From: Escherichia phage HMD-9
Sequence record: PV287714.1
DNA: 64,000 bases
Reading direction: 5' to 3' (one strand)
Shown here piece after piece: positions 4,803 through 39,237 of the stretch (positions within the stretch are counted from its first letter, which is position 1; each line of letters opens with the position of its first letter). Below the pieces are notes generated by a model that had not been told where the DNA came from, did no database searches, and saw only the letters and a program-made list of their open reading frames with translations. A program made the position numbers and the translations under genes.

Positions 4803-4975
4803 CCTTTAAGTAAGTCGTAAAATCCACCATTCACATGCTTAGGAGCGGAAACTAACCGAATAGCAATCCGATGACAATCAGGACATACATCAGTATCCCT
4901 TTCAGAAATTTTCTTGATTTTTTCGTATTCTTTTGCGCAGTCTTTGGATTGACATTTATAATCATAAAGAGGCAT
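4799..4975 (-). CDS. small zinc-ribbon protein (CxxC...CxxC), 58 aa
   Basis: ORF below track cutoff: MPLYDYKCQSKDC...CPDCH; AAGGAA SD; stop overlaps next gene start. Confidence 0.45.
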   Translation of the reverse strand: MPLYDYKCQSKDCAKEYEKIKKISERDTDVCPDCHRIAIRLVSAPKHVNGGFYDLLKG

Positions 4976-4977
4976 AA

Positions 4978-5397
4978 TTATTCCTTAAAGTGAGCTTTCA
5001 ACATCTGATACAAAGACCATGCTTGTTCATTATTTTCAATAGTAACTTTCATTACCGGGAATTCTGTGAAATCTTCTATTTGTTCTTGCTCTTCCTGCTC
5101 TTGTTCTTCAGCAGCCTGATATGGATTTTCAACTTCATCAAAGAACCCAGCTTCGTTAGTAGAGAGCCAGATAAAGTTTTCATCAAGGATATCACCGCCG
5201 GCACAACGTTTGAGTACACCTATGGATGTCATAATTTTAGTAGGACGCCCAAGATAATCAGCATCTAAAATTTTAAAAGGTTCCATACCTAAACGTCGTG
5301 CATAGATTCCGTTATCAGTATGGTCTTTAATAAAATTTTCTTGAGCTTGTTTATTTTTAAATTGATACCATTTATTAACTTCAAATTTAATAGCCAT
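4978..5397 (-). CDS. hypothetical acidic protein with EQ-repeat (goF-like position)
   Basis: 139-aa track ORF; [10 protein letters not shown] tract; position matches goF in T4 gene order (memory only). Confidence 0.55.
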
Positions 5398-14558: not shown

Positions 14559-14795
14559 TTAACCGCCTATTTGTGTAGGCGTAAACATTGCAGCATTCTT
14601 AGTTTTCCAAGTTGCTGCATCGGAAACTACATCAGAATAAGCTGCTTTTTCTGACGGAAAGATTTGATAATGAGAATCTGCGATACGATGCTCGTTAGAA
14701 TAAATTTCAAACGGAACAGAAACTTCCATACCTTTAACTTCTTTGCCTTCACCTGCTGGATGAGTAAAGGTCTTGATGTTAACGAAACCACCCAT
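14559..14795 (-). CDS. soc: small outer capsid protein Soc
   Basis: 78-aa track ORF; VNIKTF...HYQIFPSEKAAYS matches Soc. Confidence 0.85.
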   Translation of the reverse strand: MGGFVNIKTFTHPAGEGKEVKGMEVSVPFEIYSNEHRIADSHYQIFPSEKAAYSDVVSDAATWKTKNAAMFTPTQIGG

Positions 14796-14826
14796 AATAA
14801 ACTCCTTTATTGTTTAATTACAAGTG

Positions 14827-14834
14827 TATTTATA
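14827..14834 (-). promoter_or_regulatory. T4 late promoter (TATAAATA) upstream of soc
   Basis: Plus strand tatttata = TATAAATA on minus strand, about 32 nt upstream of soc ATG. Confidence 0.6.
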
Positions 14835-14899
14835 TCAGTTTTCATTGAAAACTTGTGCCATGAATTCATGTTCATCTTGAATTTGTTTATATAAAGACA

Positions 14900-15415
14900 T
14901 TAATACCCATTATCTTGACGTTCAAAATTATGTTTATTTTTCAAATAATAAAGTTTAAAGATTTCTTCCGCATTCATTCCAAGACCAGCAAACATATTTA
15001 ATACGAAATGAAATATATCAACAAGCTCAAATTTAATTTCGAGCTGATCTTCTGGGGACATTTCATCAATGCGTTTTTCTTGCGCTTCAATATAACGCGC
15101 TTTCCATTTTTTCCAAACTGCCGATGCGTCTTTTTCACCACGTGACATTTCACCAAGAGAAGTCAGAAGTTCACGGAATTCATCATCAATACAGTCTTTT
15201 TGTTCACGCATCCAAGAAACAACATCACCGGCAGTTTCTAATTTATCTGGATGATAGCAGTATTCGCGATCATTTGCTAAACGAACCTGCAGAGATTTCT
15301 GCATATCAAGCATAACCTGCAGCGGGTCTTTTTCATCACCGAGAATATTCCAGTATTCATTTTGAGCTTTATCAGCGCCTTCGATCAGTTGACTACATTC
15401 GTTAAAGTATGCCAT
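14900..15415 (-). CDS. 56: dCTP pyrophosphatase gp56 (MazG-like)
   Basis: Track ORF trimmed to internal ATG (MAYFNECSQL...) giving 171 aa as in T4; GAAAGGAA SD. Confidence 0.9.
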   Translation of the reverse strand: MAYFNECSQLIEGADKAQNEYWNILGDEKDPLQVMLDMQKSLQVRLANDREYCYHPDKLETAGDVVSWMREQKDCIDDEFRELLTSLGEMSRGEKDASAVWKKWKARYIEAQEKRIDEMSPEDQLEIKFELVDIFHFVLNMFAGLGMNAEEIFKLYYLKNKHNFERQDNGY

Positions 15416-15449
15416 TATTTTTCCTTTCAATTCATGGGTTAGTAGATTA

Positions 15450-15476
15450 ATTATACAATAAATATATAAAGCAATA
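15450..15476 (-). promoter_or_regulatory. MotA-dependent middle promoter for gene 56
   Basis: Minus strand TTGCTTTA MotA box, 11 bp, TATAAT. Confidence 0.55.
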
Positions 15477-15486
15477 AGGAGGACAT

Positions 15487-15687
15487 ATGGTACAAAAATT
15501 AATGGCACTTGTTAATGCCATCAAAGGTAATAAAAAACGTATAGCTTTTACTATTTCTGCTATGATAGGAATTTTACTCTGGAATTTTGTTTTATCGCCA
15601 ATTGCTATTGCTCATGGCGTTAATATTCCAGTAATTACTCTTGATACATTCGTAGATTTAGCATTTGCTTTAGTTGGGTTAATTTAA
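15487..15687 (+). CDS. plus-strand small membrane protein (two predicted TM helices), 66 aa
   Basis: Only intergenic plus-strand ORF; AAGGAGG SD 4 nt before ATG; exactly fills gap between 56 and 61. Confidence 0.4.
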   Translation: MVQKLMALVNAIKGNKKRIAFTISAMIGILLWNFVLSPIAIAHGVNIPVITLDTFVDLAFALVGLI

Positions 15688-16714: not shown

Positions 16715-16879
16715 TTACTCTTCTTTTTCTTTAGATTCCTCTTTTTTCTTTTTAGGAATCTGTTCAGGACCTTTATTTACTACAGCGCCTGACGTTGTTC
16801 CAGTAGAGATATTTTCAGGATTACCGCCTGAATCTCCAGCGACCATATCTTCTTTAATAAATTCTTTATATGTTTTCAT
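16715..16879 (-). CDS. small protein with capsid-targeting-sequence-like N-terminus, 54 aa
   Basis: ORF below track cutoff: MKTYKEFIKEDMVAG...; GAGG SD; stop 2 nt before gene 61 ATG. Confidence 0.45.
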   Translation of the reverse strand: MKTYKEFIKEDMVAGDSGGNPENISTGTTSGAVVNKGPEQIPKKKKEESKEKEE

Positions 16880-17492: not shown

Positions 17493-17785
17493 TATTCACC
17501 TACCACTTCAGCGATGATATTTTTATTATTAAAGTTTTTATCGCAATATAGAACATAATTATACTGCATTACACCACCAGACTTAAGCTGTTTTTGCACT
17601 TCAGCTTTCATTTCAGGACGATCACGCTCAACGATATTCATAATATCCGCTTCAATTTGAGTTTCAACTTCAGTCTGATCTGCAGTCATAGACCATTCAC
17701 ACAAATCTGTGTCATAACCCGCCATAGCAGGCTGAGCAGCACAAGAAGATAAAGCAAAAATTGCAGCAAAGATAAATTTTTTCAT
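17492..17785 (-). CDS. sp: Spackle periplasmic protein
   Basis: 97-aa track ORF with signal peptide; size and position of T4 sp (61.3). Confidence 0.75.
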   Translation of the reverse strand: MKKFIFAAIFALSSCAAQPAMAGYDTDLCEWSMTADQTEVETQIEADIMNIVERDRPEMKAEVQKQLKSGGVMQYNYVLYCDKNFNNKNIIAEVVGE

Positions 17786-17845
17786 GATAATCTCCTCAGC
17801 AGTTTATGTTTATAAAGTATCTCAATTTCCAATAAAAGTAAACAG

Positions 17846-18103
17846 TTATTTTAAAACTTCTACATAATCACATGTTACAAACTGTTTCTCTAACTTGGCG
17901 ATTTTACGAAAGTATCTTTTGCATTGGCGAATCTGTCGCTTCGTAGGGCGCACAGCAAACTTAATAAATTCCACTCGACCAAATGGAGGACTTTCTTCTG
18001 CTGGAATATCTAACACTAATTCCCACGTATCCGCAATAAGTGCCTTGAATTGAGTATTTTTCCTGACATTATACGGAGTAGGTTTAAATAAAACAATGTG
18101 CAT
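17846..18103 (-). CDS. hypothetical protein (61.4-like position)
   Basis: 85-aa track ORF. Confidence 0.55.
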   Translation of the reverse strand: MHIVLFKPTPYNVRKNTQFKALIADTWELVLDIPAEESPPFGRVEFIKFAVRPTKRQIRQCKRYFRKIAKLEKQFVTCDYVEVLK

Positions 18104-39096: not shown

Positions 39097-39126
39097 ATCA
39101 AATCCTCAAAGGCAATTCATATGTTA

Positions 39127-39156
39127 ATAATACCATAGTTTGAACTTCTTGTAAAC
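39127..39156 (-). promoter_or_regulatory. T4-type early promoter
   Basis: Reverse complement GTTTACaagaagttcaaactatggTATTAT. Confidence 0.55.
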
Positions 39157-39237
39157 AACTTTGTGAAAACTATTTTAGGGAATGATAAGAAGGGAACGAT
39201 AGCTTAGAATGGTAATATACAGAATGTGAGAAAGAAA

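Follow-up and report, generated by a model that had tools for sequence, protein, structure and literature searches.

A dam-less 56–61 junction in Escherichia phage HMD-9 and dam.1, a conserved gene for a predicted small membrane protein

In bacteriophage T4 (AF158101), genes 56 and 61 are separated by dam (780 bp) and a further 310 bp, in the order 56, dam, 61. The early and middle transcripts of T4 are all counter-clockwise and only late ones have either polarity (Geiduschek and Kassavetis, PMC2988020). Late genes, such as soc and gene 23, are served by gp55, gp33 and gp45 at the promoter element TATAAATA, which is perfect in 32 of the 50 late promoters listed, while the commonest variant, A(−13), accounts for nine (PMC2988020). 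Middle promoters carry a MotA box, with the consensus (a/t)(a/t)(a/t)TGCTTtA, centred near −30 and 12 ± 1 bp from a TAnnnT −10 element (Hinton, PMC2988021). One of these, P56/69, has its start site mapped at position 16813 of T4 (PMC2988021, Table 1), and T4 records describe its transcript as the oriA primer. According to a dRNA-seq preprint, T4 has 150 transcription start sites, 22 of them antisense (bioRxiv 10.1101/2024.04.04.588121).

We analyzed a stretch of 64,000 nucleotides from Escherichia phage HMD-9 (PV287714.1), termed the window below, which is a Tequatrovirus genome segment ~95% identical to T4. An earlier note, made from the letters alone, had flagged the 56–61 junction of this DNA as lacking a dam-sized gene and carrying a lone plus-strand membrane ORF. 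This observation is correct, yet it describes a largely ordinary configuration of the locus together with a gene, dam.1, that is already annotated and has never been studied. The explanation that we consider likely combines a common, dam-less form of the junction with dam.1 as the gene of a late-expressed membrane protein, Dam.1.

The 56–61 junction with and without dam

The junction in the window comprises the following features.

14900–15415, minus strand: gene 56, dCTP/dUTP pyrophosphatase (dCTPase; phrog_173, E 7e-41; Pfam dUTPase_2), left flank of the junction
15476–15482, plus strand: AAGGAGG, Shine-Dalgarno sequence of dam.1, 4 nt before the ATG
15487–15687, plus strand: dam.1 orthologue, 66-aa predicted small membrane protein (phrog_2024; CDS in phage T4T)
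15684–16712, minus strand: gene 61, DNA primase (phrog_47, E 2e-106; T4 annotation), right flank, convergent with dam.1

The gene coordinates leave a gap of 268 bp (15416–15683), the spacing given in the earlier note. That note had also placed a dam gene between 56 and 61 of T4; AF158101 confirms this, and the T4 interval, which holds the 780-bp gene, is not equally short. A tblastn search with T4 Dam found no homologue anywhere in the 64-kb window, in agreement with the absence of a dam-sized gene at the junction. The flanking genes are close to those of T4, with gp56 showing 94% amino acid identity. Across the 1.8 kb of genes 56 and 61, the window shares 98.3% identity with Escherichia phage 236Ecol005PP and 95.4–95.6% with T4.

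Comparison with other records indicates how common this layout is. A 111-nt probe spanning the dam-less junction was found nearly full-length in 293 phage records, and a T4-like dam in only 184, against 501 records with gp61 at the Tequatrovirus level (~500 Tequatrovirus records in all). The dam-less form is the commonest state of the 56–61 junction in Tequatrovirus.

Where dam is present, it mostly belongs to a two-gene cassette. Gene X (181–186 aa), which has a MunI-like restriction-enzyme fold, lies directly upstream of dam in T2 and in 147 records. It has been lost from T4, which keeps just the last 23 codons, 100% identical. X–dam pairs with abutting stop and start codons also occur in diverged T4-like metagenomic contigs, in which X is 55–63% identical. 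By this pairing, and its recurrence in diverged contigs, dam belongs to a mobile or polymorphic cassette. The X–dam cassette is inserted between the gene 56 promoter and the plus-strand ORF, and the window is a form without it, having neither the complete cassette of T2-type phages nor the dam-only derivative of T4. In T4, dam and the 23-codon remnant of X separate dam.1 from gene 56, whereas in the window dam.1 directly faces the gene 56 promoter.

The earlier note implied that HMD-9 had undergone something special at this site, namely a recent deletion of dam with biological consequence. Such a reading can call on T4, T2 and the other dam-positive records, 184 altogether, which have the gene at the 56–61 site, and on the missing Dam homologue in the window. 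We nevertheless consider it very unlikely. The same junction is found in the ~293 records, which include T6 and many RB phages, and dam moves together with gene X as an insertion cassette. Dam is likewise missing between 56 and 61 in the examples examined from sister genera (Mosigvirus, Gaprivervirus, Carettavirus, Kanagawavirus, Gelderlandvirus and Jiaodavirus), so that its absence is not a peculiarity of HMD-9.

A model of a single clean dam deletion was also rejected, because the homology breakpoints and the placement of the MotA box disagree. Between T4 and the window, homology on the left extends up to the −10 hexamer and resumes on the right at ATAAATA, and the MotA box lies on opposite sides of the ATAAATA box in the two genomes.

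Two side observations concern the surroundings of the junction. The window lacks segF, the homing-endonuclease gene that T4 has between soc and 56; here (14796–14899), soc and the end of gene 56 are 104 bp apart. Among the 4-bp palindromes of the window, GATC shows the strongest depletion, with 62 sites observed versus ~204 expected from a second-order Markov model of the whole window (O/E 0.30); the next lowest is TCGA (O/E 0.62). McClelland reportedly described selection against GATC in enterobacteriophages in 1985. The depletion is of interest beside the dam/X polymorphism, and the coupling of a restriction-enzyme-fold gene to dam in T2-type phages, together with a three-fold depletion of GATC, may be the more testable novelty of this locus.

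dam.1, a conserved gene on the plus strand

The plus-strand ORF has a named counterpart. The T4T record (HM137666) annotates an ORF at the identical position, between dam and 61, as dam.1 (17724–17924, ADJ39749.1). Its product is 94% identical to that of the window; the two share their length of 66 aa, the convergent 4-bp stop overlap with gene 61, the Shine-Dalgarno sequence and the ATAAATA box. The window protein matches the PHROG family phrog_2024 ("hypothetical protein") with an E-value of 8.2e-31, residues 2–66 aligning to profile positions 1–65 of 65. The ORF flagged in the earlier note is a real and conserved gene whose product is a predicted small membrane protein. It is neither new nor tied to the dam gap, since T4 carries it as well, positioned between dam and 61.

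T4 is the reference of phage molecular biology, yet in AF158101 the dam.1 ORF is intact and unannotated, and NC_000866 does not annotate it either. The T4 reference annotation has gone without the gene for decades, and no phenotype is known. A search for dam.1, T4Tp032, ADJ39749 and phrog_2024 found no relevant literature, and Petrov et al. 2010, the depositors of T4T, do not discuss the ORF. Including dam.1 in the reference annotations would make it visible to proteomic, Ribo-seq and genetic screens.

The gene is widespread, and hundreds of records list its product as hypothetical. By tblastn, dam.1 matched 692 phage records, and the 500 of these at ≥90% identity are about as many as the records with a Tequatrovirus-level gp61 (501). 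An IMG/VR search with the single protein returned five loci only. At least seven Tevenvirinae genera, which are all seven examined, have dam.1 at this site and in the opposite orientation (Tequatrovirus, Mosigvirus, Gaprivervirus, Carettavirus, Kanagawavirus, Gelderlandvirus and Jiaodavirus). Identity to the window protein is ~54% in Mosigvirus and ~48% in Gaprivervirus, and falls to 24–26% in Kanagawavirus, Gelderlandvirus and Jiaodavirus, whose copies were found by synteny and confirmed by alignment. Ten sequences, which come from at least seven lineages and include the window protein, all have the same five residues, W32, N33, P38, G44 and P48 (W-N..P..G..P). The stop codons of dam.1 and gene 61 overlap by 4 bp within a shared TTTAAA on convergent strands, and an overlapping stop downstream of 61 on the opposite strand recurs in T4T, ST0, VR25, phage 305 and Melville. 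Gene 61 abuts 56 and dam.1 is absent in RB49 (Krischvirus) and leE (Pseudotevenvirus). Among the genomes examined, dam.1 occurs only in the Tevenvirinae.

Copy number and start codon vary in places. Gaprivervirus VR25 has two tandem plus-strand paralogues, of an a-type and a b-type (L005, 2495–2901), the second copy is disrupted in TH40, and two contigs (L018 and L021) have only the b-type beside the primase gene. This distribution points to two dam.1 subfamilies that were lost differentially. In the T6 record (AP018814; L015, 1201–1203), ATT replaces the ATG of dam.1 and the annotators began the CDS at Met6. Possible readings of the ATT are a weak start, a natural knock-down and a sequencing error.

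We compared substitution patterns within and between genera. Well-separated pairs inside Tequatrovirus, and likewise inside the Mosigvirus group, give a pairwise dN/dS (Nei–Gojobori) of 0.09–0.25. Comparisons across genera show saturation at synonymous sites (pS 0.65–0.82), with pN at 0.25–0.35. Variable sites at codon positions 1, 2 and 3 number 8, 2 and 12 among 11 Tequatrovirus sequences and 7, 0 and 15 among three Mosigvirus-type sequences, a combined 15/2/27 (chi-square ~21, 2 df, versus uniform). The Shine-Dalgarno sequence of the window, called near-perfect in the earlier note, is an exact AAGGAGG. A GGAG or GGAGG core lies 4–6 nt before the ATG in every lineage examined, even where the intergenic DNA cannot be aligned. 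By these comparisons, dam.1 is a true protein-coding gene that has been kept under purifying selection across the Tevenvirinae genera examined. Since it occupies the same site in seven genera and is under purifying selection, dam.1 almost certainly does something.

The earlier note also called it the only credible plus-strand gene in 64 kb, and this was borne out. The other plus-strand ATG-ORFs with 40 aa or more that lie mostly outside long minus-strand ORFs all lack a Shine-Dalgarno-like sequence within the 45 nt upstream. Over the first 50 kb, the T4T annotation has just two plus-strand CDSs, those of dam.1 and of gp55.7 (28 aa). The counterpart of gp55.7 in the window (39121–39204, plus strand) has an in-frame stop at codon 6, which suggests that gp55.7 is not a conserved gene. 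A plus-strand ORF at 4871–4993, downstream of a plus-strand TATAAATA, was a further candidate for a clockwise gene but was rejected for want of a Shine-Dalgarno sequence; by an estimate of the coordinate offset from T4T, it is probably antisense to gene 39.2.

Transcription signals on the two strands

The 5' region of dam.1 holds signals for both strands.

15476–15467, minus strand: MotA box TATTGCTTTA, a perfect match to wwwTGCTTtA
15455–15450, minus strand: TATAAT, −10 hexamer of P56/69, separated from the MotA box by an 11-bp spacer
15457–15464, plus strand: T4 late-promoter-type box AATAAATA, followed 22 nt downstream by the ATG of dam.1, with a predicted start near 15470
15489–15524 (stem 15524–15499), minus strand: terminator-like hairpin with a U-run, antisense to dam.1 codons 5–13 and downstream of gene 61

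The perfect box, its 11-bp spacing and the TATAAT hexamer uphold the reading of a MotA-type middle promoter for gene 56, and the predicted promoter is collinear with the mapped P56/69 of T4. The window and T4 agree in the MotA box, in the length of the spacer, in the −10 hexamer and in how far the promoter lies from the start codon of gene 56. The spacer sequence differs: in the window, unlike T4, it holds the late box of the divergent gene, and the Shine-Dalgarno sequence of dam.1 abuts the MotA box.

The minus-strand hairpin has an 11-bp stem and a dG of −12.4 kcal/mol (z −4.3), with none of 200 shuffles equally stable; on the plus strand it is weak (z −0.5). It is specific to Tequatrovirus, being absent from Mosigvirus ST0 and Gaprivervirus VR25. 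A role as a candidate terminator of gene 61 transcripts, parting the 61 and 56 transcription units, is plausible.

Comparison of the equivalent position across genera reveals a conserved late-promoter-type box. It reads AATAAATA in Mosigvirus and Jiaodavirus, as in the window, GATAAATA in T4 and T2, CATAAATA in Gaprivervirus and ATTAAATA in Melville, while Kanagawavirus 305 and contig L018 have a perfect TATAAATA. L021 has the TAAATA core only and L016 no recognizable late box. The perfect sequence never occurs at this site in Tequatrovirus.

Such boxes are rare in the window. WATAAATA occurs seven times on both strands against 24.8 ± 5.2 expected in 64 kb, a depletion of ~3.5-fold that is consistent with an early region in which spurious late promoters are avoided.

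4724, 15457, 22364 and 60848, plus strand: the only four plus-strand WATAAATA copies in the whole window, with the dam.1 box at 15457
14827, 42979 and 56545, minus strand: the three minus-strand copies

The late gene soc (14559–14795) served as a positive control, with TATAAATA at 14834–14827 on the minus strand, 32 nt upstream.

The late-promoter box, which the earlier note had missed, offers a way in which a clockwise gene could be transcribed although the early region around it runs counter-clockwise. Since early and middle transcription of T4 is counter-clockwise, dam.1 should be readable by the late apparatus only, a constraint that it shares with clockwise late genes of T4. Like theirs, its candidate box has 8 bp, lies ~22 nt ahead of the ATG and precedes AT-rich sequence, and it would give a short leader that includes a Shine-Dalgarno sequence. 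Unlike them, its predicted box is the A(−13) variant, and the gene stands alone in an early/middle cluster. We propose that RNA polymerase modified by gp55 and gp33, with the gp45 clamp as activator, would read dam.1 from the conserved box and produce a ~16-nt leader with a strong Shine-Dalgarno sequence. Transcription would then be late and dependent on gp55, with its start near 15470. Downstream of dam.1, the plus strand showed no intrinsic terminator, and the transcript may therefore continue antisense into gene 61.

Two alternatives to a translated, late-expressed dam.1 were weighed. According to one, the ORF is not translated and the interval is kept for regulatory DNA or RNA, such as P56/69, oriA-related sequence, the gene 61 terminator or an antisense RNA. 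The interval does contain the MotA box and −10 hexamer, the strong minus-strand hairpin falls inside codons 5–13, and the T4 reference annotation has no CDS here. These regulatory elements, however, span just the first ~40 nt of the ORF, whereas the codon-position bias and a dN/dS of 0.1–0.25 extend across the whole 198 nt. Moreover, the protein persists in Mosigvirus and Gaprivervirus, where the hairpin is missing, and its length, start, Shine-Dalgarno sequence and invariant residues are kept across genera in spite of synonymous saturation. Selection on the reading frame and the retained Shine-Dalgarno sequence make a non-coding interval very unlikely, and we give this reading hardly any credence. 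The other alternative accepts the protein and has it expressed early or middle from a sigma70-type plus-strand promoter. A weak match, TTGACT-18-CATTAT (9 of 12), is found at 15389–15418 on the plus strand, but such matches are no commoner than in shuffled sequence (5 versus 4.0 expected). The late box is conserved across genera and the −35/−10 pair is not, and the counter-clockwise polarity of all known T4 early and middle transcripts (PMC2988020) also speaks against early or middle expression, which we judge highly improbable.

The Dam.1 protein and its possible role

We used AF2, with an alignment of 10 sequences, to explore the structure of Dam.1, and obtained a model with helices at residues 2–12, 16–42 and 52–63 (mean pLDDT 81). 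The N-terminal 20 residues carry a net charge of +5, and one clear transmembrane segment is predicted at about residues 19–42. The last 18 residues are hydrophobic in Tequatrovirus, Mosigvirus and Gaprivervirus, with a mean Kyte–Doolittle value of 1.8–2.2 and two conserved acidic residues. In five homologues from other genera, the same segment scores 0.6–1.1 and contains 2–3 charged or His residues. Of the two transmembrane helices predicted in the earlier note, one is clear; the C-terminal segment is not hydrophobic across genera, and its AF2 helix (52–63) comprises only 12 residues. Homologous segments should share a topology, which favours a single-pass protein. Dam.1 is probably a single-pass inner-membrane protein, N-in/C-out, with a short periplasmic or interfacial helix, and a two-transmembrane hairpin is less likely. 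A basic, amphipathic N-terminal helix would then lie in the cytoplasm, one transmembrane helix would bear the invariant Trp–Asn pair and a Pro, and the short C-terminal helix, with the conserved acidic residues, would most likely be periplasmic or interfacial.

Dam.1 of the window is 54% identical to that of Mosigvirus ST0, compared with ~74–75% for gp61 and gp56. This fast divergence, in combination with the retention of Asn and Pro in a membrane helix, suggests specific helix–helix contacts and a co-evolving partner.

Searches for a function were uninformative. The search of the 66-aa peptide against protein families that the earlier note had suggested did identify a family, phrog_2024, but no match in Pfam or NCBIfam and no characterized family. 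An HMM search of 1.84 billion representatives and a word-index homologue search both returned family members only, none informatively named. A Foldseek search of BFVD with the AF2 model found family members, two uncharacterized 63-aa phage proteins at sub-significant scores (E 0.07–0.18) and otherwise noise. Among all these matches there is no homologue with a known function, and nothing links the protein to lysis or to another process.

A hole-forming role, as a small two-transmembrane holin or pinholin-like protein, would suit a protein of this size with predicted late expression. Two stretches of the Tequatrovirus version are hydrophobic, a pore could be lined by the transmembrane Asn and by the acidic residues along one side of the C-terminal helix, and the OE5505 homologue is labelled "Holin" in UniRef and BFVD. 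That label, and "head morphogenesis" on other Dam.1 records, look automatic. Dam.1 matches no holin family in Pfam, PHROGs or NCBIfam, and the second hydrophobic segment is not kept in the homologues from other genera. Holins have a charged C-terminal tail, whereas Dam.1 ends in a hydrophobic ...AFALVGLI with its charges at the N-terminus. Its neighbours are the dCTPase and primase genes, with no endolysin or spanin gene adjacent, and T4 already has a complete lysis set, consisting of the holin T, the antiholins RI and RIII, the endolysin E and the spanins PseT.3/PseT.2. We therefore regard a holin as improbable.

As a predicted late, single-pass membrane protein, Dam.1 can be compared with small phage membrane effectors. 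Class II holins, pinholins and the T4 proteins RI, Imm and Sp are small, membrane-anchored and act at the inner membrane, as predicted for Dam.1, and effectors of this type share with it a fast divergence relative to neighbouring core genes. Dam.1 resembles none of them by sequence or by profile, and any functional likeness is purely hypothetical; Imm and Sp, moreover, are encoded by early genes on the other strand, unlike dam.1, which is predicted to be late. Dam.1 may be a late modulator of the envelope or of the lysis phase at the inner membrane, a suggestion that we offer tentatively and with considerable doubt. Its helix would make contacts with a phage or host membrane partner and thereby influence lysis timing, lysis inhibition or another envelope event. 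A bolder version, which we hold to be unlikely, makes Dam.1 an unrecognized component of the late envelope programme that uses the Trp–Asn/Pro motif, for example, to tune holin/antiholin timing, lysis inhibition or superinfection. If this were true, Dam.1 would be a new player in the best-studied phage lysis system.
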